The translations under genes and the position numbers were made by a program. From Promethearchaeota archaeon (lineage in GTDB: Archaea; Asgardarchaeota; Lokiarchaeia; Sigyniarchaeales; SOKP01), in contig SDNY01000017.1 of assembly GCA_004524535.1 (NCBI GenBank), positions 1 through 40,599 of the forward strand: a stretch of 40,599 nucleotides of DNA, in the 5' to 3' direction. Positions 27,230 through 40,599 of the stretch are shown here, one piece after another (the stretch's first letter is position 1; each line of letters opens with the position of its first letter). The notes beneath the pieces are model-generated. The model was not told the DNA's origin. It did no database searches and worked only from the letters and a program-made list of their open reading frames with translations.

Positions 27230-27393
27230 TTCAATCTAATCTAATTTTTTTTTCTGAAATATATAAGGTTCTTTTTCTTTTAAGAATTTATTACTATCCT
27301 AAGAAAAATTCTTTCAATGAAAAACCTATTCTTTATAAATAATAAATAAATAATAATATATAATATTCAAAATCAAGTAAATGGAAAAGAAAA

Positions 27394-27459
27394 ATGATTA
27401 GAAAAAACTTAATAGTTCCTTCATCAACTTGGTTTTGTATTTGTTGTTGGCACGCATAG
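27394..27459 (+). CDS. putative trp leader peptide MIRKNLIVPSSTWFCICCWHA
   Basis: 21-codon uORF with 2 TGG codons, ending 176 nt before trpD; homologous to the uORF before trpE. Confidence 0.7.
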   Translation: MIRKNLIVPSSTWFCICCWHA

Positions 27460-27514
27460 AGCGTGCGCAATGGCTTTATTTATTTTAGAATTTCTTGCTT
27501 TTATCTCTTTATAA
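27443..27514 (+). terminator. putative attenuator hairpin plus U-rich tract
   Basis: GCACGC-ATAGA-GCGTGC (27450-27466), extended by GTTGTTG/CAATGGC, followed by TTTATTTATTTTAGAATTTCTTGCTTTT. Confidence 0.65.
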
Positions 27515-27635
27515 TTCTAAAAATTTTCTGTTTGAATTGTAAAGAATAAAGGGGTTTTCTACAATATTAGAAATTCTAATTCTCTTAACATTTTTTAAAA
27601 TTTTATCAAAAAAAAAATAAAAATATTGCATAAAA

Positions 27636-28691
27636 ATGTCTACAGAAAAAATAGTTGATGGTTTGAAAAAAATAACTCAAAAAGTAAGCTTAACAAGTGA
27701 AGAAGCAGAAAATATAATGAGAGAGATAATGTCCGGTAAGGTACAAGACGCTCAATTAGGAGCATTTTTAACAGGTTTAGCTATGAAGGGAGAGTCTGTT
27801 GATGAAATCACAGGGTTTGCTCTAATAATGAGAGAATTTGCAAATCAAATTGAACCTAATGTAAAGGGAGATTTATTAGATACTTGTGGAACGGGAGGAG
27901 ATAAGATTAAAACATTCAACATTAGTACACTTTCGGCCTTAGTTGTTGCAGGAGCTGGAATACCCGTTGCAAAACACGGGAATCGTGCTGTAACTAGTAC
28001 ATGTGGTAGTGCAGATTTATTGGAGGGTTTAGGAGTGAAAATTAATTTACCTCCTGAAGAAGTCAAAAATTGTATTGAAAAAGTAGGTATTGGATTTATG
28101 TTTGCGCCTTTATTTCATCCGGCGATGAAATATGCTATGCCTACTAGAAGGGCTCTAAAATTAAGAACTGTCTTTAATATACTTGGCCCATTAACAAATC
28201 CTGCAAAAGCCAATTGTCATGTATTAGGCGTATTTCAAAAAGATTTAATCCCTGTTATGGCCAAGGTATTAAACGGCTTGGGTGCAAAACATGTTTTTAC
28301 AGTTCATAACTCATATGGTATTGATGAAGTAGCACCAGTAGGAATAAATTATATCACAGAACTTAAGAATGGAACAATTGAGAGTTATGCAATTACCAAT
28401 GAAGATTTTGGCATTCCTGATTGTTCTATAAATGATATATTAGCGGGAAACACTGAAGAAAATCTTAAAATCGCAGTGAATATCTTAAAAAATAAAGTTA
28501 TAGATGCAAAATATAACACGGTATTAATGAATGCTGCATTAGCTCTTAAAAGTGTAAATAAGGCAAGCGATATCAAAGAAGGAATTGAAATCGCTAAAAA
28601 TGTTATTGAATCTGGAAGTGTTTTTGAAAAACTTAAACAATTTATCGAAGTATCCGGTGGAACTCAAGATAAGTTAATGAGTTTGTTATAA
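27636..28691 (+). CDS. trpD: anthranilate phosphoribosyltransferase
   Basis: DTCGTGGD, FNIST, KHGNRAVTS and RTVFNILGPLTNPA motifs. Confidence 0.97.
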   Translation: MSTEKIVDGLKKITQKVSLTSEEAENIMREIMSGKVQDAQLGAFLTGLAMKGESVDEITGFALIMREFANQIEPNVKGDLLDTCGTGGDKIKTFNISTLSALVVAGAGIPVAKHGNRAVTSTCGSADLLEGLGVKINLPPEEVKNCIEKVGIGFMFAPLFHPAMKYAMPTRRALKLRTVFNILGPLTNPAKANCHVLGVFQKDLIPVMAKVLNGLGAKHVFTVHNSYGIDEVAPVGINYITELKNGTIESYAITNEDFGIPDCSINDILAGNTEENLKIAVNILKNKVIDAKYNTVLMNAALALKSVNKASDIKEGIEIAKNVIESGSVFEKLKQFIEVSGGTQDKLMSLL

Positions 28692-28702
28692 AAAAAAAAA
28701 GC

Positions 28703-29509
28703 TTGAGATTAATGATTTCGAATAAAATAAAAGAAATAGTTGAGCAACGGAAAAAGTCTATTCAAAGAGACATAGATTTCATGAGAGATATAGGTAGTGA
28801 GATTTTCAAAAATAATCGGAGACCTTTAAGTGAGATTATTAAAAATAATCAAGGGATTTCAATTATTTCAGAGATTAAACCAGCATCTCCTACTTTAGGT
28901 AATATTAAAAAGAATATTAATGTTAAGGAGATTGCTACAGAAATGGAAAGTGCAGGGGTAATTGGATTAAGCGTTTTAACTGAACCTAATTATTTTAACG
29001 GATCCTATGAAAATCTCAAGTTAGCGATACAAAGTACGAAATTGCCGTGTTTAATGAAAGATTTCGTTGTTGATGAGATCCAATACAAGATTGCTGCGCA
29101 AATAGGAGCAACTAATATTTTGATTATAAATTCAATTTGCAATTTGGAGGATTCCTACCGCAAAGCTTTAGAATATAGTTTAGAACCTCTGATTGAAATC
29201 CATAATATTGAAGAACTCAATGATATTCGTCATTTATATGATATAGGTTTTAAACCTACATTAATCGGAGTGAATAATCGAAATTTGAAAACATTGGAAA
29301 TTGATCTAAACACTTCTAAAGAGATTATACCCAAAATAAAGAGGGAATTTGGGGATGATATAATTGTTGTTAGCGAGAGTGGTGTGAATATCATAGAGAA
29401 TATTAATTTTCTCTTACAATATCAAGCTGACGCATTTTTAATAGGATCCTCAATAATGAAATCAAATAACATAAAAGAAAAAATACTATCATTAAGAGGG
29501 GTAAATTAA
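28703..29509 (+). CDS. trpC: indole-3-glycerol phosphate synthase
   Basis: ISEIKPASPT, SVLTEP, MKDF, GVNNRNL and VSESG motifs. Confidence 0.96.
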   Translation: MRLMISNKIKEIVEQRKKSIQRDIDFMRDIGSEIFKNNRRPLSEIIKNNQGISIISEIKPASPTLGNIKKNINVKEIATEMESAGVIGLSVLTEPNYFNGSYENLKLAIQSTKLPCLMKDFVVDEIQYKIAAQIGATNILIINSICNLEDSYRKALEYSLEPLIEIHNIEELNDIRHLYDIGFKPTLIGVNNRNLKTLEIDLNTSKEIIPKIKREFGDDIIVVSESGVNIIENINFLLQYQADAFLIGSSIMKSNNIKEKILSLRGVN

Positions 29510-30156
29510 TGGATTACGTTAAGGTTTGTGGCTTAAAAGAAACTGAACACATTGAATTATGCAGTAAAAATGAAGCTAATGCCGTAGGTTTCATTTACAA
29601 TGTTCCTAATTCTCCAAGAAATTTAGAAAAATCCAAATTAATGAATCTTTTAAATGACATTCCTAAGAATTTATTAAGAGTAGTTGTATTTAAACCCCAA
29701 AACGTGTTAGAATTAGAAAAAATAACCAATGAAATAGATGTTGATTTATATCAGATTCATAATAATTTTGAAGAACAAGAATTGGATGAGATTTCAATTG
29801 ATTTAAAGAAAAAGATTATTTTAGCTTTACAAGTAAATCCTTCCAATAAAGATGACGTAATTAATAAGATTAATAAATATTATGACCAATTTTTTGGATT
29901 TTTAATTGATAATAGTGAAGGTCATGGTACAGAATTTAATTTTAATATCGTTGCCGATATCATAGATAATACCAAAGGAGCGAGTATAATAGTCGCTGGA
30001 GGTATTAATATTAATAATATTGAAATTATAATTAAAAATTTAAACCCTTATGGAATTGATGTAAGTAGCTCATTAGAATCCGAAAAAGGGGTTAAAGATC
30101 CATTAAAAATTGAAAATTTTTTAAAAAAAGTAAATGAAATTAAGAAAACATTATGA
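29509..30156 (+). CDS. trpF: phosphoribosylanthranilate isomerase
   Basis: VKVCGL, SPR, QIH, AGGI, IDVSSSLE and GVKD motifs. Confidence 0.95.
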   Translation: MDYVKVCGLKETEHIELCSKNEANAVGFIYNVPNSPRNLEKSKLMNLLNDIPKNLLRVVVFKPQNVLELEKITNEIDVDLYQIHNNFEEQELDEISIDLKKKIILALQVNPSNKDDVINKINKYYDQFFGFLIDNSEGHGTEFNFNIVADIIDNTKGASIIVAGGININNIEIIIKNLNPYGIDVSSSLESEKGVKDPLKIENFLKKVNEIKKTL

Positions 30157-30165
30157 GGAATAAAT

Positions 30166-31368
30166 ATGAAATATAATGGGATATATCCTAATAAGTGCGG
30201 TAAATTTGGGGATTTCGGAGGTATTTTTGCTCCAGAGGTTCTCATGCCGGCACTTTGTGAGCTGGATGAAGCTTTTGAAAAATATAGAAATGACGAAAGT
30301 TTCAAGAAAGAGTTTTATCAGATACTCGAATCATATGGGGGCCGTCCAACACCTTTATTTTATGCTAAAAGACTAAGCGAAAATGTAGGATGCAAAGTAT
30401 ATTTGAAAAGAGAAGATTTACTTCATGGTGGAGCTCACAAATTAAACAATGTAATAGGACAGGCTTTATTAGCCAAGAGAATGGGAAAGAAAAAGCTTGT
30501 AGCAGAAACAGGAGCAGGACAACATGGGTTTGCTACTGCTATTGCTGGAGCTTATTTCGGTATGGAAACAAAAGTATTCATGGGAAAAGTAGATATAGCC
30601 AGACAAGCTTACAATGTTTATCGCATGCAATTACTTGGTGCTGAAGTAATACCTGTGGAAAGTGGTTCAAAAACATTGAAGGATGCAATTAATGATGGAC
30701 TTAGATATTGGATCACCAATGTAAGAGATACTCACTATTTAATGGGAAGCGTTGTCGGTCCACATCCATATCCTCTATTAGTTAGAGAATTCCAAAGAAT
30801 TATTGGAATTGAAACTAAAAAGCAAATAATGGAGTTAGAGGGTAGATTACCTAATGCAATCATGGCTTGTATTGGTGGTGGAAGTAATGCTATAGGAATA
30901 ATGTATGATTTCATTGAAAATGAGAACGTCCAGTTAATTGGAGTTGAGGCTGCTGGAGAGGGTTTAGAAACAGGAAAACATTCAATAGCATTAGGTTTAG
31001 GTCGCAGAGGCGTATTACATGGATCCTTAATGTATCTATTACAAAATGAATATGGTAATATATTAAAGAGTCATTCTATAAGTGCGGGACTAGACTACCC
31101 TGGTGTTGGTCCCGAACATTGTTTTTTAAAAGAATTATCAAGGCTTAGAGTAGAAACCGCAACAGATAATGAGACTCTAGAATCTTTTCAAAAATTATCC
31201 GTTTTAGAAGGGATAATTCCAGCATTGGAGTCATCGCATGCACTTGCATGTCTGGAAAAAATTAAGGGTGAGTTTAATAAGGATGACATTGTAATAATTA
31301 ATTTATCTGGTTCAGGTTCTAAAGATCTAAATATAATCAAACAACGTTTGGAGTTTAAAGTAAAATGA
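30166..31368 (+). CDS. trpB: tryptophan synthase beta chain (TrpB1)
   Basis: [31 protein letters not shown] and [15 protein letters not shown] motifs. Confidence 0.97.
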
Positions 31369-32204
31369 ATGATACAAATAGAATTTTGGACCTTTTTAAT
31401 GAGAAGAATTCATTAGAGGAAAAATATTTTATGCCATTTCTAGTTTGTGGAGATCCTTCGATTGAGCAGTTTATATCGATGGTTAAAAAGATCGCTCTAT
31501 ATATAGATCTTTTAGAATTAGGTGTGCCATTTAGCGACCCAATTGCTGATGGTCCTACCATTCAAGAGGCAAATATGAGAGCTTTCGAAGCAGGCATCAA
31601 TACAAAAGTAGCGCTCGATACAATTAAGAAAATTAGGACATTTTTCACTAAACCAATTGTTATTTTAACTTATTATAACATTCTAATTCAAGGGTCAGAG
31701 ACAATAGAAAGTTCTTTGGATAATACATTGAGAAGATTCAAGGAGAGTGGTATTGATGGAATTGTTATCGCCGATCTACCAATTGAGGAAGCAGGCTTAG
31801 CTTTAAAATATTGCAAAAAGCACGATATATCACTTATATTTTTGATTGCTCCTACTACTACCGACGATAGATTAGAAAAGATCTTGAAAGAAGCAAGAGG
31901 ATTTATCTATTTAATATCAATATTGGGTGTTACTGGTGCTCGAGAAAAAGTAGCTCAAATCACGAAAGAAACGATTAAAAGAGTAAAAGAAAAAATCAAA
32001 ACGAGGATTCCTGTTTTCTTGGGATTCGGCATATCTAAACCAGAACATGCATCCGCTGTAGCTGAATTAGGAGCTGATGGCATTATCATTGGCTCGGCAA
32101 TAATAGATATCATTAAGAGAAATTTAAGCAATTTTAATAAAATGGAGCAAGAATTAATCGAATTTGTATCAAGTATAAAAAATGCGATAAAGAGGTCGAA
32201 TTAA
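31365..32204 (+). CDS. trpA: tryptophan synthase alpha chain
   Basis: [22 protein letters not shown] and GFGIS motifs; ATGA overlap with trpB. Confidence 0.97.
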
Positions 32205-32206
32205 GA

Positions 32207-32242
32207 ATGGAATTTGATATACATATAGAAAAAATTGGATTA
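32207..32242 (+). pseudogene. relic 5' end of trpE directly after trpA
   Basis: MEFDIHIEKIGL versus MEFDIHIEKLGF at the start of trpE (39434). Begins 2 nt after the trpA stop. Confidence 0.8.
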
Positions 32243-33127
32243 TTTACCAATCACTTCTTCGAACTTAATTTGGACATATTTTATAATTCCTAACTTCTTT
32301 GCCCATCTTAATATATAATTTATTCGTTTTTCAATAGTAATATCTAATAATATCACGGCAGGTATCGAAAGGATCGCTATTATTAGCGGAAATATCAAAA
32401 ACAGAGGAAGTTCTGGACCCCCAAAAAAACCTTTTTGGATCATTGTTATAACAAATACATAAAAAGAAAAGGCTAAACCAATTCCAGCGAAACCTTGCAA
32501 AAAATACAAGTACCACCCTCCTACACTTCGAATCTCAACCAGATCTCGTTTATTCTCAACTTTTTCAGCATTAGAATATACAATACCTGCATCTATCAAG
32601 AACCAAACGGAGGAGAATAAAAACATAGAAATTCCGACTGTAATACTAAGTAGCATTCCTAAAGTGATTAATACACCTTCACCACCCGCTTTTTCGATAT
32701 AAATAAAGTTGTTTACGATGTCATCGTTTATAACGAGCATTAAAGCAAGGTTAATACTAGTCAAACCTGGAAATAGCGCTCTAAATGTATAATTAAATTT
32801 TTCAGGAGTCTCCCGTATTTCTATTCCATATTCCATTTTTCGACCTATTGTTGATTTATGAAGGTAAAGAAATATTGGCCCTAACAAATATCCACCTAAT
32901 AATCCTCCAATTATTGCTGCTAAAACAACCATACCAAATGAAAATAATATCCAATGTCCTGTGCTATCAAATTTGATTATTTTAACATAGTCAGTGGCTT
33001 GAATTTCAATTTTAAAAATTATTATAATAATAGACAATATAATAAAAAAGCCAAATGTAGTAAAAAACAAAATTATTGGTTTTTTATATTTTTTAAAATT
33101 CACAATTTTTATGAATAGATTACTCAA
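32240..33127 (-). CDS. hypothetical membrane protein
   Basis: 295 aa, about 6 TM segments. Confidence 0.7.
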   Translation of the reverse strand: MSNLFIKIVNFKKYKKPIILFFTTFGFFIILSIIIIIFKIEIQATDYVKIIKFDSTGHWILFSFGMVVLAAIIGGLLGGYLLGPIFLYLHKSTIGRKMEYGIEIRETPEKFNYTFRALFPGLTSINLALMLVINDDIVNNFIYIEKAGGEGVLITLGMLLSITVGISMFLFSSVWFLIDAGIVYSNAEKVENKRDLVEIRSVGGWYLYFLQGFAGIGLAFSFYVFVITMIQKGFFGGPELPLFLIFPLIIAILSIPAVILLDITIEKRINYILRWAKKLGIIKYVQIKFEEVIGK

Positions 33128-34025
33128 TTAGAAGTTTTCTAATTTTCTTTCTTGAATTTTCTACATCCAATAGTGTAGAAGAATTTTTAATACTCAAAGC
33201 ATCTGCCCAAATATTTAACTCGTGAGAATTATATTCTGAGATCTCTTTACTCTCCCTTAAATCATTATAGTAGGTCTCCATTTTTTTTATTTGGGATTGA
33301 TTAGCTGTACCATTTTTTCTCAATATATTATAACTTTCGAAAGTAAATCCCGATTTATGGTTTTCATAATCATCCTTACCCTTCATTGAATTTGTTACAA
33401 AATAATTATTCCATAATTTCTTATCAATAGGCGGGACAATCAAAATTGACATGTTTCTATTTAATTTTCCATAAAGATTATCTTTTAGATAATCTCCTAC
33501 TGATGCTTCAAAACCAAACAGAGAGATAAAAATAATTTGTGGGATTATCTTAGAATACTGTTTAAGCTTTTTTCTATGCAGTAATTGAGCAAATCTCTCA
33601 ACTTCACCAGTTAATTTAAGAACTTGAATTAATTTTAATGGTTGGATTTTCTTATTGGTAAAAACAAAGGTGATTTTAAGATTACCATTCTCTTCTTCTC
33701 CCTCATCAGAATATTGATCTTCAATCCTATCCTTTAATGGTTTAAAATCATTTCTTGTACTCTTAGAAGTAGGATTAGAAATCTGTTCTTCAACTTCGTT
33801 TATAATTAAATCAGCAATTCGTTGCTGAACTGCATTATTAAATGCAAAATTGTGATTTCTAAATGTCTTTATAGAATTTTTTTTTGAGATAATAATTTTA
33901 CTTTCGATTGAATCTATGTAAGGGCCATAAACATCCTGCCATATATCCAATGGACCGTCTATTTCAAATAATGAAAAAGGATATTTTCCCAAAATATCAG
34001 AATAACTTTCTGTATGTATTGTCAT
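33120..34025 (-). CDS. hypothetical protein
   Basis: 301-aa ORF, GAGGAG SD, overlapping the downstream gene. Confidence 0.7.
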   Translation of the reverse strand: MTIHTESYSDILGKYPFSLFEIDGPLDIWQDVYGPYIDSIESKIIISKKNSIKTFRNHNFAFNNAVQQRIADLIINEVEEQISNPTSKSTRNDFKPLKDRIEDQYSDEGEEENGNLKITFVFTNKKIQPLKLIQVLKLTGEVERFAQLLHRKKLKQYSKIIPQIIFISLFGFEASVGDYLKDNLYGKLNRNMSILIVPPIDKKLWNNYFVTNSMKGKDDYENHKSGFTFESYNILRKNGTANQSQIKKMETYYNDLRESKEISEYNSHELNIWADALSIKNSSTLLDVENSRKKIRKLLIE

Positions 34026-34587
34026 TTATTTTACTCCTCTTTTTTAATTTTAGAATGTGTTAAAATCTTTTAATTGAAGTCTGTTTTCTCACATTCAATG
34101 AAACAACTTTAAATTAAATCTCATAATATCTTCAATTTTAAAGGGCAACTGTAAAAATATCATAAGATATTTATCTACTTTCATTATGGTAACAAATAAG
34201 AAAGACACTGATACAAGAGAAATAATTTAAAAACAAATCTTACACTTAAAAATTTAAAGGATCTGAAATTTTTTTTGTGTCTGTATTAATAGTAGTAATA
34301 ATTATATTTATAATTAACGCTAAATTGTTTTATTTTATTAAAACTCAGCAGATATAAAATTTTTTTTTATAAAAGTTTAAAAGCTGAAATTTTTTTAAGT
34401 TTAATCTCTCAAAATCCCTAATTTTAAATTAAGTCTCTATTTTAATACTTAGATTTGTAATCGGGGATAATTTCTGAAAGAAAAGACTCCCAAGATACTG
34501 TACATGGAATCATATTATAATTTATATAAGAAAAACTTATACTTTTGAATTTTTTTTTATTATTGAAAAAGAAAGGAAATCTAGACT

Positions 34588-35601
34588 ATGATAGAGAAAT
34601 TTTTAGTTATATCTTATTTTGACATGCTCTTAGGGCCTAATATCCTTTATTGCAAAACCGAAGATACTAATAATATCTATGAATTTCCTGATTTAAAGAA
34701 ATTATTGGAATTTATTGATGATGAGGGTACCTTTTTATTTTCTTTTAGAAAATTTCAAACTGTTAATACTGTTTTTTATATGAAATCTGATATTGCAAGG
34801 GGAGGAGAAGATCTACTTATGATTTCTTGTGTAATCCGAGCATCTTATTTTAAGAATGAACTTACTGATATTCTTCAATACTTAGAAGCAAAGAAACCTA
34901 TTTTGGAAAAATTTGCAGCTGAATTGAAAGTACTCCCTAATTTTAACTTAATTCTACACAAACATAAACAAAACCCGACCATAAAACAATTTACACAATA
35001 TTGCAAAGAAATTAATGTAGATTTTTTTTCTATTTATGATAAATTTTTTGATCTAATTTATCCGGAATCTGAAATCAGAATTATCACCCAAGATATTAAT
35101 CTTCAAAAAAAAATTCTACTAATAGGACCTAAAGGTTCTGGTAAAGATACTTTCTTAAGATCCATTGAAGCGCTCCAATTTTATAGTCAAAATAAATTAG
35201 ATATTCCCACTAGAATTTTGGGAATTATAATTGACAATATTATTCTGTCTAGTAGTGCTGATTTTTTAGATGATAAAATCGGATTAGACAACGCTCAAGC
35301 GATAATTTTTCTTATTAAAAATCAAGATAAAAACCACTATAATGAAGTCAATTCATTAATAGAAAAATTTATTTCTTCCTATTCAAACCAGAGGTTTGGA
35401 ACAGTTCCGCTTTTAATAATAAATAATGTTTTTAAGGGTAAGATCCCTTTAAGAGAAAAAGACATAAGAAAAAATATTTCTCAACTCAAAAAAATAAAAA
35501 GAGAAAAAATTCCTATTAAATTTTATTCACTAAATGTTAATAAACAAGACCCTAAATTATTAGACCCTTTAAAGTGGTTAATTAAAGAAATTTTTACTTA
35601 A
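34588..35601 (+). CDS. longin/uDENN-like N-terminal domain plus degenerate small-GTPase domain
   Basis: N-terminal ISYFDMLLGP (longin/uDENN-like FD-x2-GP). KILLIGPKGSGKDT P-loop, AQAIIFL and VPLLIINN, with no clear G3 DxxG. Confidence 0.55.
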   Translation: MIEKFLVISYFDMLLGPNILYCKTEDTNNIYEFPDLKKLLEFIDDEGTFLFSFRKFQTVNTVFYMKSDIARGGEDLLMISCVIRASYFKNELTDILQYLEAKKPILEKFAAELKVLPNFNLILHKHKQNPTIKQFTQYCKEINVDFFSIYDKFFDLIYPESEIRIITQDINLQKKILLIGPKGSGKDTFLRSIEALQFYSQNKLDIPTRILGIIIDNIILSSSADFLDDKIGLDNAQAIIFLIKNQDKNHYNEVNSLIEKFISSYSNQRFGTVPLLIINNVFKGKIPLREKDIRKNISQLKKIKREKIPIKFYSLNVNKQDPKLLDPLKWLIKEIFT

Positions 35602-35797
35602 ATATGTCCAAATCAGTAAGGAAATATTCTCTGGTAAAAAACAATTCCTTCACGTAAAAATGTGAAGTTAATACTTTTTTATGGTGGTTATAATATTTTT
35701 GAACATATTGATTTTAAATACTCTTCTCAAACATTCACTACTTTTTTAATTAACAATTTAATTTGTATTGTATCGAGCATTTTAAGAATGTTATTGT

Positions 35798-36403
35798 TTA
35801 TTCTTTTGAAATTGACTTTTTCTTTTTAGATTCTAATCTCTTTATACTCTGTTCATAAACTTTTTCAAGTTTTTGCTTTCTATTTAAATATTTATTTGTC
35901 TCATCATCAATTGCTTTATTTAATTTTTTTATTTTTTCAGAAAAACTAATACTATGTACGATTTTAATTGATTTTGGCTCTTTATTTATGATCCCTCTTA
36001 AATCTTTAGAAAAAGAATTAAACAAATCAATATTTACATACCATAATTCTTGGTTATATAAGTTCTCAAACTTTAAATTAAATTTTTTACCGATTCTCTC
36101 AATTAAAACATTTACTTTCGTTTCATCCATATCTATTTTGTCAGAAATAGATATTACCAACATGATTTGCTTTAAAAAATAAAAAAAGATCTTATGATTT
36201 GATAACTTTATATGTTTTATCTCACCTACAAACACTTCATCTGCAAAATTAACTAATGCTGAAAGAAAACTTAAAATCATATCAGTTGAAATCCCATATT
36301 TTGTTATATCTTTATAAATTTCTTCAAAAATAACAATTCCAGATTCAGTTTCTGATATCCAGACAGCATCAATAAAATCTTCAATCCTTTGCTTTTTTGG
36401 CAT
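35798..36403 (-). CDS. longin-like domain protein with coiled-coil tail
   Basis: VWIS-x3-SGIVIF, LSFLSALVNFADE and IKHIKLSNHKIFF follow the longin beta-beta-alpha-beta pattern. Confidence 0.6.
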   Translation of the reverse strand: MPKKQRIEDFIDAVWISETESGIVIFEEIYKDITKYGISTDMILSFLSALVNFADEVFVGEIKHIKLSNHKIFFYFLKQIMLVISISDKIDMDETKVNVLIERIGKKFNLKFENLYNQELWYVNIDLFNSFSKDLRGIINKEPKSIKIVHSISFSEKIKKLNKAIDDETNKYLNRKQKLEKVYEQSIKRLESKKKKSISKE

Positions 36404-36495
36404 ATTTTCTTTTTAGGTTATTAATTAAAATAAATCAAAAACTCCCTACAAATTAGAAATTGCATCTGACTATTTAATTTTTTTATTATTCTATC

Positions 36496-37722
36496 TTATG
36501 AACGGTCCAACTTCCTCTTTTTTGCGAACAAATCTTTTAATTCGGTCATAAGTGATTGTCTAACGTTTGGACCCTGGAGTCTTAGTGTAGATTCTGTAGA
36601 CGGGTGTGATGGTGGTGAGGCTTCGATAGGACCTGCAAAGATTTGCTGAGATAATTCTTTCGGAACAGTAACTGATTCAATAGCAACGATTCTTCTTTCT
36701 AACTCATTACAAAACTCAGATAACGTTATAACAGCGTTTAGCGTTTTTTTAATCGTTTCGCCTAAGCTGCTAATTTTCTCGGTAGTTGCTTCAGTGTCGT
36801 AGAGAAATGAATCTTTATCCCTTAATATCTCTTTTAATGATAATGAAAACTTTGGTTTCTTTGATATTAATGAGTAGATTGAGCTAAGATAGACTTCATA
36901 GTCAAATTTTTTTTCCTTAAGCAAAACGCTAACAATATCCTTAACGACCTCTACTTGAAGAGATATGTCAGGATCATCTCTAATTTCAGGGTCATATTTA
37001 TGAATTAGGACTATAATCTGAGGGTAAATTTCAATTCTATCTAAAATTTGAAGGATTTCATTGAAATATTGAAAATTATCATCAAATTTTTCAGGATCTT
37101 GTACATCTATAACGTAGACCAATAAATGGGTATTTAGAAAATTTTGTTCTTTTGAAAGATGGCTTTTCCTATATTCTTGCTGGCCCCCAAAATCCCAAAT
37201 CGCTAACTCCATATCATGTGTTTTTATTGTCTGGAAATCTATACCTTTCGTTGGCTCTAATTCGGCAATATTTTCAATCCCTAAGCGCCCTCCAATTTTT
37301 GATATAATTGCTGTTTTACCCGCATTATCAAGCCCTAATACTACTACTTTTTGTTTTTCCTTTTCTATTGGAAAAGATTTTTGTTTGATTAATTCTATAA
37401 GTATGGTAATTGTAATTGCTTTCTTTATTTTCTCTTCTAATTCTGGTTTAGCTTTCAATATATTCTTTACTAATGATTTAGTCTCATCCGATTTAAATAA
37501 TTCTTTAAAAGGGTCCTCTTGATTCAATTTCGTAAAATCTTTAATTTTTGAAATCCTGAATATTTTTTGTATATTTTCAACGTCCCTCTCTTCTAAAAAC
37601 TTATAAGCAGAAAGTGGTAGTTTAAACACACTCTCGATATCCTTCAGTTTGTCTAATTTAACTGTTTTTGGATTCAAAAACTTAGAAATTAAATCTAATT
37701 TACTCGATAATTTTTTGGACAT
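36496..37722 (-). CDS. Arf/Rag-like small GTPase with N- and C-terminal extensions
   Basis: G1 GLDNAGKT, G2 PTKG, G3 WDFGGQ, G4 HKYD, G5 SSI. Confidence 0.88.
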   Translation of the reverse strand: MSKKLSSKLDLISKFLNPKTVKLDKLKDIESVFKLPLSAYKFLEERDVENIQKIFRISKIKDFTKLNQEDPFKELFKSDETKSLVKNILKAKPELEEKIKKAITITILIELIKQKSFPIEKEKQKVVVLGLDNAGKTAIISKIGGRLGIENIAELEPTKGIDFQTIKTHDMELAIWDFGGQQEYRKSHLSKEQNFLNTHLLVYVIDVQDPEKFDDNFQYFNEILQILDRIEIYPQIIVLIHKYDPEIRDDPDISLQVEVVKDIVSVLLKEKKFDYEVYLSSIYSLISKKPKFSLSLKEILRDKDSFLYDTEATTEKISSLGETIKKTLNAVITLSEFCNELERRIVAIESVTVPKELSQQIFAGPIEASPPSHPSTESTLRLQGPNVRQSLMTELKDLFAKKRKLDRS

Positions 37723-37850
37723 AATTTAAAATACACCATTATATGTTTTGGCATCGTCAATATTAATACATTTAAAATTATTTCTTTCCTTTTAAATTAT
37801 CTTCATTATCCTTTACTTCATTATCCTCTATGAGATAAATATTACCCAAT

Positions 37851-38474
37851 TTAATTTACCTGCGGAATTAATAGGATAAAATTACTCCCCTTTGAATAAT
37901 CATTTTCTATTCTATCTTCAACCCAAATCTTACCATCATAGCTCCCAATGATTTTGTGAACAATTGTGAGTCCGACTCCCAACCCTTCTGACGTTTTTTG
38001 AAAAGTTTCTCTGAATAATTTAGCTTTTACTTTATCTTCTATCCCAGGACCATTGTCTTTAAATTGGAATTTAACATATTTAATAGTCTCTAAAATCTCA
38101 GATGAAATCTTAATATCGATAGTGATTTTCTCCTTATCAGTATGTTTAATTGCATTAATAAGAATATTCTCTATTACTCCATTAATTAGGTCATTTGCTA
38201 AAATTCTCAGATTTTTATCAAAATCTTGAATATTAATACTAAAATCCTTATTTCTAAAAGTTTTTTTTATATAATCTATACCTTCTTCGATAATATCATG
38301 AACTTTTATAGGACGCTTACTTTCCTCACCTTTTTCAAGTTTTGATATTAAATGTACATTTCCTGCTAAAATTTGAGCTTTATTAATTTGTTCTAAAATA
38401 ATTGAATTTAGTTTAGCTATTTGTGCTAAATTCTCTGGTTTATCTATAATCTTAGATAGGGCTTCACTAGACAT
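37851..38474 (-). pseudogene. 5'-truncated histidine kinase (HATPase_c domain only)
   Basis: N box ENILINAIKH, G1 DNGPGI, G2 GLGVGL. The upstream frame reads KYDLIQVIL back to a stop, with no H-box and no sensor domain. Confidence 0.6.
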
Positions 38475-38605
38475 TAAAATAACTTGAATTAAATCATATT
38501 TTTAATATTTAAATCAACATTAATAATTTCCAAAACCTTCTGGATAAGTTCAATTTTTCTTCACTTGCTTGTAATTTTATGTTTTATCCTCAAATCGTTA
38601 AGATA

Positions 38606-38776
38606 TTATGTATCATAAGTTTCTTCATGGAATTCATTTTCATATTCGCCTTTTTCTTCATCCTCTTTTTTATTCCAGTCATCATCCTCGCTTTTTGTTT
38701 GTTTTTCTTCACGATTTTTACTCCTCTCGTTCCATTTATCCGTTTTCATTTTTTTGCTATCTTTTTTTTTTCTCAT
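38606..38776 (-). CDS. 56-aa highly charged small protein (not in the ORF track)
   Basis: MRKKKDSKKMKTDKWNERSKNREEKQTKSEDDDWNKKEDEEKGEYENEFHEETYDT, with a GGAG SD upstream. Explains the Phe-rich shadow ORF on the + strand. Confidence 0.55.
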   Translation of the reverse strand: MRKKKDSKKMKTDKWNERSKNREEKQTKSEDDDWNKKEDEEKGEYENEFHEETYDT

Positions 38777-39218
38777 AATTTTCGCTCCGATACATATTTT
38801 CTAACACACAATTCAAAGCTCATTTAAGATTTTTAAATGGAATTGTTATAAGTTATAAGCTTCTAAATATTCCTTACAAGATTTCTAACTAATCTTAGAA
38901 TAAGAAGTTAATAATGTAAAGAAAAAAATCTACATTGTTTAAGATTAATTAGCTTTCTCTTATTTTATCTTAGTCATTATTATTTTTAAAAAGAAAGATT
39001 AATTAAAAAATTGAAGCTTCTTTAGAAGAAAAACTTGAAAAGTCCCTGCTTTCAAAAGAAAATTTTTATTAAAACAATATAATTTCATATTGAATTTAGA
39101 TTCATACGAGCCATTATTTAAGATATTATTAAACTAACGTTATGCTGTTAAAATAAAATATAAATATAAGCTATCCTTAGTTTATTCATATTATACAAAA
39201 CAAAGTTGGTAAGTAAGA

Positions 39219-39290
39219 ATGAATGACTTGAATGAAAGTACTGGTTTTTGTAAATCAACTTGGTTTTGGGCTTGGCGTTGGCACGTGTAG
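39219..39290 (+). CDS. putative trp leader peptide MNDLNESTGFCKSTWFWAWRWHV
   Basis: 23-codon uORF with 4 alternating TGG codons, ending 143 nt before trpE. Confidence 0.8.
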   Translation: MNDLNESTGFCKSTWFWAWRWHV

Positions 39291-39333
39291 AACGTGCGCA
39301 ATGGCTTTACTTCTTTTAGGATTTCTTTTTATT
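39276..39333 (+). terminator. putative attenuator hairpin plus U-rich tract
   Basis: GCACGT-GTAGA-ACGTGC (39281-39297), extended by CGTTG/CAATG, followed by GCTTTACTTCTTTTAGGATTTCTTTTTATT. Confidence 0.68.
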
Positions 39334-39433
39334 AAATGCATGAATAGAATAGAGATTCTAATTCAAATTATAAAAATTATGATTTTTTTACAGATTAAAG
39401 AAAAATAATAAAAAATTAAAAAGTTGGTTAAAA

Positions 39434-40599
39434 ATGGAATTTGACATTCATATTGAAAAGCTTGGCTTCATATCTAATTCGAATATTTTTGGATTCTACA
39501 AATATTTAGTGAATCTGTATGATTTAAAAAAGCATGCTCTATTAGAGTCCGCTTCAGAAAGTACAAAAGAAACCTTATATAGCTTCATTGCTCTACAACC
39601 TGATTTCATGATTGAAATTAATGAGGATAAGTTTAAAATATATGATATCACTACTGCCCGAGGTGAAACGATTAAAGAATTTGTGGAATCTAGAGATCCT
39701 GCTGCGGAAAGACCGCACAATCCCTTACCATTTAAAGATAATGTAGAATATAATATGGTCGCGCTCGATACTTTGAGCCATCTCACACCTTATTCTAATC
39801 TTCCTTTCACGGAGTTATTCCCAAGGAACATCTTTTACGGCGGAATGCTAGGGTATATTGGGTATGACGTAGTTGCTCCTTATGTGGGTTATAAATCTAC
39901 AAGCGAATTTCCAGATATTTTAATGGGGCTCTATACAAAAGCACTGGTCTATTCACATAAATCAAATGCATTATTCATGATTGATAATAGCATTGATGAT
40001 TATTCAAAAGATAAAGATATCCGATATCAACTCAGCTTATTTAATAGAAATCATAATTCAGATGAAGATGGAGAAATTCCCTCGGATATCGAAGAGGTGG
40101 ATGAATCTTATTTCAGATCCAATACAAGTAAAAGCGCTCATGAAAAAATGGTAGAAAAGACAAAAGAATACATTTATGATGGAGATATTATACAAGCAGT
40201 TATCTCCCGAAGGCTCTATACAGAGACAAAAATCGACCCTATGGCAATTTACGAAGTTCTAAGAGTTCTTAATCCATCGCAATATATGTACAATATAAAT
40301 TTTGGAAATATTCGCATCATTGGGAGTAGTCCAGAAGCACTTATCTCAAAAAATAAAGATATTCTTAATACTGTGCCAATTGCCGGAACAATAAGAAGAG
40401 GCAAAACTCCAGAAGAAGATACAAAATTGGAAAAGGAATTGTTAGATGATCCAAAGGAAAAGGCTGAACACATCATGCTTGTGGATTTAGCGCGCAATGA
40501 CCTAGCCAAAGTTTCATATCCAGGTTCTGTTGACACATTTGAACTCATGACAATTCAAAAATATCAAAAAGTTCAGCATATTGTTAGTAAAGTGAGAAG
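39434..40599 (+). CDS. trpE: anthranilate synthase component I (3' end outside the window; not in the ORF track)
   Basis: LLES, GGMLGYIGYD, GDIIQAVISR, NPSQYMY, GSSPE, PIAGTIRRG and KEKAEHIMLVDLARND motifs. Confidence 0.95.
   Translation, partial: MEFDIHIEKLGFISNSNIFGFYKYLVNLYDLKKHALLESASESTKETLYSFIALQPDFMIEINEDKFKIYDITTARGETIKEFVESRDPAAERPHNPLPFKDNVEYNMVALDTLSHLTPYSNLPFTELFPRNIFYGGMLGYIGYDVVAPYVGYKSTSEFPDILMGLYTKALVYSHKSNALFMIDNSIDDYSKDKDIRYQLSLFNRNHNSDEDGEIPSDIEEVDESYFRSNTSKSAHEKMVEKTKEYIYDGDIIQAVISRRLYTETKIDPMAIYEVLRVLNPSQYMYNINFGNIRIIGSSPEALISKNKDILNTVPIAGTIRRGKTPEEDTKLEKELLDDPKEKAEHIMLVDLARNDLAKVSYPGSVDTFELMTIQKYQKVQHIVSKVR

Follow-up and report, generated by a model that had tools for sequence, protein, structure and literature searches.

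A tryptophan-codon leader peptide before trpDCFBA in a Lokiarchaeia genome, probably a ribosome-read tryptophan gauge

In enterobacteria, the trp biosynthesis genes are preceded by the leader trpL (Rfam RF00513), a short open reading frame (ORF) with clustered Trp codons and with U-rich sequence downstream, in which the Trp codons, two adjacent ones, lie in the 5' arm of a hairpin and the stop codon lies in or next to its loop. In the case of pyrBI of E. coli, a ribosome that is close behind the polymerase directly blocks the terminator hairpin, the signal is the speed of the polymerase (uridine triphosphate), and coupling leads to read-through. In the tna operon, attenuation is Rho-dependent, and the nascent TnaC leader peptide senses free tryptophan and thereby induces a catabolic operon. 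The leader analyzed here comes from an Asgard archaeon, a Promethearchaeota archaeon of the Lokiarchaeia (GenBank assembly GCA_004524535.1), and is located on positions 1 to 40,599 of contig SDNY01000017.1; this whole stretch of 40,599 nucleotides (nt) is called the window in the following. Upstream of trpDCFBA, the window contains a 21-codon upstream ORF (uORF) in a conserved folded leader, which very probably serves as a ribosome-read tryptophan gauge; such gauges have been described so far only for bacteria. A paper of 2021 (PMC8448881, section 15) states that archaea have no known case of transcription attenuation or antitermination, and a literature search, with most subscription journals outside its coverage, found no report of an archaeal leader peptide.

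It is highly likely that the leader is a cis-acting sensor of Trp codons, and judging from its sequence we give a probability of roughly 55% to the reading that the trpDCFBA leader is a ribosome-read tryptophan gauge that acts via premature termination. In its sensor part, the leader resembles the enterobacterial trpL attenuator: a short leader ORF with clustered Trp codons precedes trp biosynthesis genes and is followed by U-rich sequence, and the positions of Trp codons and stop codon in the hairpin are the same. Unlike trpL, the Asgard leader has an archaeal promoter with a TATA box, four UGG codons that occupy every second position, an additional helix between the 5' end of the transcript and the first UGG codons, and separate copies for the trpD, trpE, and trpA units, and neither an alternation of antiterminator and terminator nor a match to the Rfam model has been found. 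With pyrBI it shares the overlap of the leader ORF with a hairpin before a U-rich tract, where masking by the ribosome makes an antiterminator unnecessary, but in the Asgard leader the signal must be the speed of the ribosome at UGG, and the sign of the effect thus needs another explanation. As in tna, a leader peptide would be combined with a factor-dependent terminator, the archaeal counterpart being FttA/aCPSF1 acting at U-rich RNA after the ribosome has left (PMC13681488); unlike tna, the Asgard leader conserves codons and not the peptide, and its genes are biosynthetic. Mycobacterial polycysteine attenuators, leaderless uORFs that gauge one amino acid (bioRxiv 10.1101/834739), are relevant to the UGU codons of the leader before trpD and to the apparently leaderless Ile uORF described below, but they are bacterial Cys-only sensors before Cys genes.

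The coordinates of the leader before trpD (copy 1) and of a second one before trpE (copy 2) are compiled in Table 1. Both copies have a promoter, a uORF, and three helices termed P1, P2, and P3. The start of the copy 1 transcript is predicted at about 27352-27356 from the usual archaeal distance between TATA box and start, so that the 5' arm of P1 would be at the extreme 5' end of the RNA. P1 of copy 1 has a duplex energy of -14.3 kcal/mol, compared to a shuffle mean of -5.4, and none of 200 shuffles is as good. In P2, the core stem GCACGC (27450-27455)/GCGTGC (27461-27466) encloses the loop ATAGA that contains the TAG, and with the one-base bulge the hairpin has 13 pairs from 27443 to 27474 and -17.1 kcal/mol, which 2 of 200 shuffles reach as well. 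The region 27420-27560 folds with z = -3.6. The uORF has TGG codons at 27430-27432 and 27448-27450 and TGT codons at 27436, 27442, and 27445, and the T6 run after P3 is the sole T-run of at least 5 in copy 1. Copy 2 matches 27423-27496 with 85% identity over 74 nt (E 7.6e-18), and it is the only other such site in the 3.66-Mb genome, as the 38 other matches listed have E values of at least 0.012 and concern the U-rich part only. The closing pair of the hairpin is C-G in one copy and U-A in the other. The downstream genes, with trpD starting at 27636 and trpE at 39434, were assigned with Pfam, and about 7 kb of unrelated genes (32240-39200) lie between trpDCFBA and trpE, each trp unit having its own leader.

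Table 1. Features of the two leaders and their genes, in window positions; the strand is that of the window.
Feature	Position	Strand	Remark
TATA box TATAAATA, promoter of copy 1 leader	27324-27331	+	at most 1 mismatch at the same distance in 36 of 38 copies
P1 5' arm CAAAATCAAGT	27358-27368	+	extreme 5' end of the predicted transcript; pairs with 27427-27437
uORF of copy 1	27394-27459	+	21 codons, ATG 27394, TAG 27457-27459, product MIRKNLIVPSSTWFCICCWHA, then stop
P1 3' arm ACTTGGTTTTG	27427-27437	+	spans first Trp codon, Phe codon, and following codon
P2 hairpin	27443-27474	+	last Trp codon in 5' arm; UAG in 5-nt loop 27456-27460; bulge G27467
U-rich tract TTTATTTATTTT	27475-27486	+	immediately 3' of P2; candidate pause or termination tract; only T4 runs here
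P3 5' arm TTAGAATTTCT	27485-27495	+	97.4% of cells paired in 28 copies
Additional hairpin within P3 loop	27498-27553	+	trpD-type copies only
P3 3' arm AGAAATTCTAA	27569-27579	+	pairs with P3 5' arm
T6 run after P3	27591-27596	+	strongest archaeal-type termination signal in copy 1; followed by TATA-like TTTAAAAT
trpD, trpC, trpF, trpB, trpA	27636-32204	+	Pfam; presumed regulated genes of copy 1
TATA box of copy 2 (trpE leader)	39159-39166	+	
P1 5' arm of copy 2	39196-39208	+	-14.9 kcal/mol; 1 of 200 shuffles as good
uORF of copy 2	39219-39290	+	MNDLNESTGFCKSTWFWAWRWHV, then stop; four UGG at 39261, 39267, 39273, 39279
P2 hairpin of copy 2	39276-39303	+	UAG 39288-39290 within loop
P3 of copy 2	39316-39361	+	arms 39316-39326 and 39351-39361; T7 run 39383-39389; trpE start 39434

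Copies of this leader are linked to trp genes. After removal of duplicates, 40 distinct leaders are available, all of them from Asgard or unnamed archaeal DNA, and the genes that they precede are trpD, trpE, trpA, and one for a GNAT-methyltransferase. If the proteins of the window are compared with what lies downstream, the first match is TrpD for 11 leaders, TrpE for another 11, and TrpA for 8, including a decayed copy. Among the 10 copies without such a match, 5 precede a fusion of GNAT and S-adenosylmethionine (SAM)-methyltransferase, and most of the other 5 are truncated where their contig stops. With an 86-nt query, 20 sites at E <= 4.1e-8 were obtained from 16 of 100 family genomes, and a covariance model built on the core found the leader in 16 of 130 family genomes and in none of 19 genomes from the other three families of the order. 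As trpD is present in only 33 of those 150 genomes, and as a large genus without any leader in its 42 genomes also has no trpD in any of the 42, the leader follows the pathway. In a scan of bacteria and archaea with each species represented by one genome, the exact pattern was found in 18 stretches, 13 of Promethearchaeota, 3 of other Asgard phyla, and 2 of an 'uncultured archaeon', with no match elsewhere in that set; it also occurs in 22 metagenome contigs. The copies keep the frame of the uORF and its UGG codons, with a variable N-terminus and with changing residues between one Trp codon and the next.

The first-pass annotation of this DNA, which had been made from the letters alone, had described a Trp leader peptide with its UAG in the loop of a hairpin and with a U-rich tail before trpDCFBA, all of which can be read directly from the sequence. 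Its claim of a second copy before trpE holds as well, and the recurrence of the element before trp genes in related genomes goes far beyond chance. Its general picture also holds: a leader peptide with Trp codons lies within a leader of conserved structure, and each of the two copies is ahead of trp genes. It had named a lack of conservation of the uORF as one of the refuting conditions, and the outcome of this check is favorable, as frame and UGG codons are kept across the copies and a stop-codon hairpin is found in most leaders, also in diverged ones (see below).

The copies share the layout of TATA box, P1, P2, and P3 with following T-runs. The TATA box with at most one mismatch lies 26-30 nt before the conserved CAAAAYCAAGTT, which is the region of the P1 5' arm and which, by the usual archaeal spacing between TATA box and start, would be at the very 5' end of the RNA. 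This segment pairs with ACUUGGUUUUG, which spans the first two Trp codon positions. P1 duplex energies range from -9.5 to -16.9 kcal/mol, compared to shuffle means of about -5.5, and for 12 of the 19 loci no more than 1 shuffle in 200 does equally well; in this test, the failures of L014 and L018 result from a misplaced TATA anchor, and L039, which lacks upstream sequence, and L040, in which no TATA box was found, were excluded. When 28 copies are aligned, 91.4% of the cells of P1 pair, and double-sided changes are seen in 4 of its 12 pairs. The covariation score of P1 and P2 together is 0.129, compared to a shuffle mean of 0.088, with none of 500 shuffles reaching 0.129 and with only 27-46% pairing in slid controls, figures that can be inflated by the kinship of the aligned sequences. 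P3 is formed by UUAGAAUUUCU and AGAAAUUCUAA, which lies 30-85 nt downstream; among the same 28 copies there are 14 one-sided changes, all of them compatible with G-U pairing, and 8 unpaired cells. T-runs of 5-11 are found within 150 nt after the uORF stop codon in 37 of 38 copies, at a distance of 16-64 nt in 23 of the 38, and most copies have such a run about 20 nt after P3. In the trpA and trpE copies, the 3' arm of P3 is followed by a conserved AATTCAAATTATAA (its counterpart in the window is 27561-27600), then by a T-run, and then by a conserved AAAATAAT.

Further support for the sensor comes from diverged leaders, for which the trpD upstream regions of 20 genomes without a strong model match or from other families were inspected. 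A Trp-rich uORF is present within 700 nt upstream of trpD in 17 of these 20 genomes, including the three other families of the order, and two of the three remaining loci end at contig ends. The uORFs end in sequences such as ..GWQWPWRFE, ..WRWQWPWR, ..AWSWRR, or ..TWPWHWPLPA, directly followed by the stop codon. There are 18 Trp-rich uORFs in 13.3 kb of these regions, while 38.6 kb from farther upstream contain 1 and 51.9 kb of antisense sequence contain 5, and with at least 3 Trp the respective numbers are 12, 0, and 0. A hairpin that encloses the stop codon in a loop of at most 14 nt and has an in-frame UGG in its 5' arm is found in 33 of 37 leaders, and its stem differs between lineages (GGCACG/CGUGC, GGCGUU/AACGCU, GGCGCG/CGCGCU, CCUGGCG/CGCCAGG), and these hairpins are the strongest structural support for P2. 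Diverged leaders of the AT-rich type use the RNA 5' end differently, pairing it with the segment directly after the hairpin and not with Trp codons. In a GC-rich relative (L093), a helix between the 5' untranslated region and the post-hairpin segment, which is followed by UCUUUCU, is exchanged for an alternative pairing when a ribosome footprint is masked at the first UGG. As modeled, this exchange is classical attenuator logic and the only candidate switch of this sort; it is not conserved in its sister genome.

The same logic appears to be used for other amino acids. A scan of the own genome for short ORFs rich in a single amino acid gave mostly noise, and after filtering for intergenic position and downstream gene 35 candidates were left, of which only the Trp, Leu, and Ile cases precede cognate genes. 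The Leu-rich uORF (MKMLQYNK...LLLKLLDLLLLLQ, then stop; L100:1811-1921, minus strand, contig C76 5510-5620) lies 93 nt before a leuA-like gene, and a long hairpin follows its stop codon. The Ile-rich uORF (MKKIVPISVIGIIIIGII, then stop; L099:1937-1993, minus strand, contig C78 8436-8492) precedes a cimA-like gene of the cimA/leuA family. It lies behind a TATA box, AAATATAAATA, of the same kind as in the Trp leaders, with a spacing that makes it apparently leaderless, and its start region pairs with its own last Ile codons and with its stop. Among relatives, an Ile-rich uORF is present before the cimA-like gene in 19 of 20 cases and a Leu-rich one before the leuA-like gene in 17 of 20, although in AT-rich DNA the antisense control for Ile is weak, as 6 Ile per window of 8 residues occur in 3 of 20 antisense regions. 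With these Ile and Leu parallels, an amino-acid-specific leader peptide is much the best reading of the Trp uORF.

How such a gauge may work can be outlined as follows. The promoter at 27324-27331 would start the leader RNA a few bases before 27358, and a ribosome would translate the uORF, whose first UGG is in the 3' arm of P1 and whose last UGG is in the 5' arm of P2. As these regulatory codons sit in helix arms, a ribosome that waits at UGG for scarce charged tRNA-Trp must keep P1 and/or P2 physically open, and this opening of helices by stalling is suggested here on the basis of the modeled structure. When charged tRNA-Trp is plentiful, the peptide would be completed, the ribosome would leave at the UAG, and P1 and P2 could both fold. 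At the folded leader, the archaeal polymerase would then most likely stop at 27475-27486 or at the T6 run, before trpD, either on its own or helped by FttA/aCPSF1, a cleavage factor, and a shortage of tryptophan would result in read-through into trpD. FttA/aCPSF1 is described to prefer U-rich nascent RNA and to compete with the coupled ribosome (PMC13681488). The own genome encodes a 703-residue MBL/beta-CASP protein, below the Pfam cut-off, that can be regarded only as a candidate FttA homolog, and no KH domain was found in it.

Several findings weigh against this outline. Folding of 19 leaders in which the stretch covered by a ribosome on each UGG or on the stop codon was masked gave neither an antiterminator nor any recurrent alternative helix, and P3 stayed folded at every masked position; also pairings sought by eye (P2 loop and next tract, 3' arm of P2 and 5' arm of P3, or 5' arm of P1 and region after P3) are not conserved. 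If P2 and the U tract are taken as the terminator, the sign is wrong unless release is fast and the polymerase waits, because P2 would be free during a stall at the first UGG and masked by a ribosome that has reached the stop codon. The same model is weakened by two lineages (L017, L022) in which no U tract follows P2 and another hairpin with a U-rich run lies further on. A scan of 27250-27700 for bacterial-type terminators gave no site (sigma-70 promoter matches in the same region are irrelevant for an archaeon), archaeal polymerases are not known to require a hairpin for termination, and the only termination signals known for them are T-runs, of which copy 1 has just T4 directly after P2. 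P2 and P3 are too invariant for covariation: in the alignment of the core and P2 only, a single pair shows double-sided change and the score of P2 is matched by 160 of 500 shuffles, and in the case of P3 it is 467 of 500. The ribosome-read Trp sensor is well supported, and the hairpin with its U tract is a putative terminator of the attenuator that the first-pass annotation had named.

The same ribosome-read sensor could have a post-transcriptional output, the state of P1 and P2 setting mRNA decay, processing, or translation. This would agree with the absence of an antiterminator in masked folding, with the recurrent pairing of the RNA 5' end with the regulatory codons or the post-stop region (P1, the helix of 5' end and post-hairpin segment in diverged leaders, and the Ile leader), and with the behavior of P3, which is insensitive to the ribosome position and conserved in sequence, as would be the case for a processing or protein site. 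It is nevertheless unlikely, as T-runs of at least 5 follow the leader in nearly all copies, as two lineages have, in place of P3, a hairpin with a following U-rich run (U8 in L017, U4CU5 in L022), and as a free 5' end under starvation would if anything favor decay, which is the wrong sign. A further point against the main reading is that the trp genes may have a promoter of their own. In copy 1, the TATA-like TTTAAAAT after the T6 run is about 35 nt before the trpD ATG; in copies of the trpA and trpE type, the conserved AAAATAAT is found 18-31 nt (mostly 25-31) before the start codon and may be a second promoter or part of a terminator; and in 19 of 38 copies there are TATA-like matches in the leader between the uORF stop codon and position +150. 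The leader could then be a short transcription unit in its own right, ending at the T-run, with little or no control of trpD by the uORF. TATA-like words are however common at a G+C content of about 28%, as in the window and its genome, the element precedes trp genes (30 of 40) or the same GNAT-methyltransferase gene, always on the same strand and at a fixed distance, and it is hard to see what use a stand-alone Trp-codon ORF would be next to each of three trp units, which is why a separate unit is regarded as improbable.

Also the sensor itself could be of another nature. A protein- or tRNA-binding riboregulator (TRAP-like or T-box-like), or a pair of DNA operators for a repressor, with the ORF being incidental, is suggested by the arms of P3, which are nearly invariant 11-mers that are each close to a palindrome, and by the UAGAA that occurs in the P2 loop and in both arms of P3. 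TRAP sites consist of 9-11 spaced (G/U)AG triplets, and by eye the leader has only three UAG(A/G) words; a T-box, with its specifier and antiterminator fold, was not matched either; in the whole window, Rfam gave no match at the gathering thresholds (including Trp_leader RF00513 and T-box), and at E <= 1 there were only two sub-threshold matches at chance level, to a snoRNA family and a miRNA family. The conservation of P3 is confined to exactly those 11-mers that are complementary and does not include the full palindromes, and therefore RNA pairing is favored over two protein operators, a possibility that we reject. The one-sided changes in P3 are A to G opposite U or C to U opposite G, which fits a helix in the RNA of this strand, and frame and UGG codons are conserved also in leaders with unrelated stems, all of which makes such a regulator quite improbable. 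Most improbable is a TnaC-like arrest, in which the nascent peptide would sense free tryptophan in the ribosome tunnel instead of UGG sensing charged tRNA. The C-terminal WFWxWRWHA before the stop codon is highly conserved in this leader type, and the stop codon is in a special context, but the conserved codons for H, A, and stop double as stem nucleotides of P2, diverged leaders end differently (..WRY, ..WRFE, ..WRA, ..WRWQ, or ..WSWRR, each followed by the stop codon) and keep only a W-x-W pattern, with variable residues between the Trp codons, and the Ile and Leu leaders share the logic of codon runs.

The ribosome-read gauge may have been retuned in copy 1. Among the last nine residues of the 40 leader peptides, 30 copies have 4 Trp and no Cys, 5 have 3 Trp and 1 has 2 Trp, these six without Cys, and 1 is decayed; in total, 31 of the 40 copies have 4 UGG codons, 30 of them without a Cys codon. 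Cys codons are confined to three trpD leaders from the genus of the window, namely in a relative with 4 Trp and 1 Cys (L009), in a relative with a 95%-identical TrpD and 3 Trp and 2 Cys (L010), and in copy 1 (L001), whose state of 2 Trp and 3 Cys is unique among the 40. As Cys is limited to these three related leaders, and as a metagenome relative with a 92%-identical TrpD (L151) retains 4 Trp, the state of copy 1 is recent and derived. At least 4 separate changes took place, all of them yielding UGU, and the U/G-rich lower stem of P2 is preserved. The difference of TGG and TGT codons between the two copies, which had been pointed out in the first-pass annotation, is thus real, and tabulated over the 40 copies it represents a derived state, whereas the suggestion made there that copy 1 could be partly decayed is unlikely, since its promoter, P1, P2, and P3 are intact. 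The exchange may have lowered the sensitivity to tryptophan, may have added a sensing of cysteine, or may be neutral. With two UGG left, the response of copy 1 would be less steep than that of the four-UGG copy before trpE.

If the gauge is what it appears to be, there is translation-coupled gene control in Asgard archaea, the closest prokaryotic relatives of eukaryotes, and the leaders would be a mutable test system for the coupling of transcription and translation in archaea and for termination by FttA and U tracts. The three parallel cases of Trp, Ile, and Leu would be open to comparison, and two copies with 2 and 4 Trp codons in one genome would be a natural experiment on the tuning of a sensor. 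A tentative generalization is that Loki-type Asgard archaea have a whole family of ribosome-read gauges (Trp, Ile, Leu) that work without the bacterial switch of terminator and antiterminator. The stalled ribosome might keep open those helices that tie together the RNA 5' end and the stop-codon region, the U-tract/FttA machinery might read the result, and repeated replacement by UGU might have left the trpD copy with a weaker response to Trp or made it sense both Trp and Cys.

Some minor observations concern the surroundings of these leaders. A three-Trp variant (..WFWVLHWHA, then stop) precedes the fusion of GNAT acetyltransferase and SAM-methyltransferase in L020 (173-1321, minus strand), L021, L023, L039, and L050, which suggests that this fusion is a Trp-regulated enzyme. 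The decayed copy (L040:1311-1655, minus strand) has stops in the uORF and mutations in the stems and adjoins a truncated trpA-like ORF, with intact copies present in the same genome. Between the Trp leader and trpD, several genera have a conserved ORF of about 85-100 codons (L013:1740-2039, L079-L084) with the motif ..GPEK..TA.FIAENY.., to which no Pfam family matches. In the window itself, two genes on the minus strand lie between the trp units, one for a histidine-kinase-like ATPase (37851-38474) and one for a small GTPase of the Gtr1/RagA/Arf type (36496-37722), which is typical of Asgard archaea.

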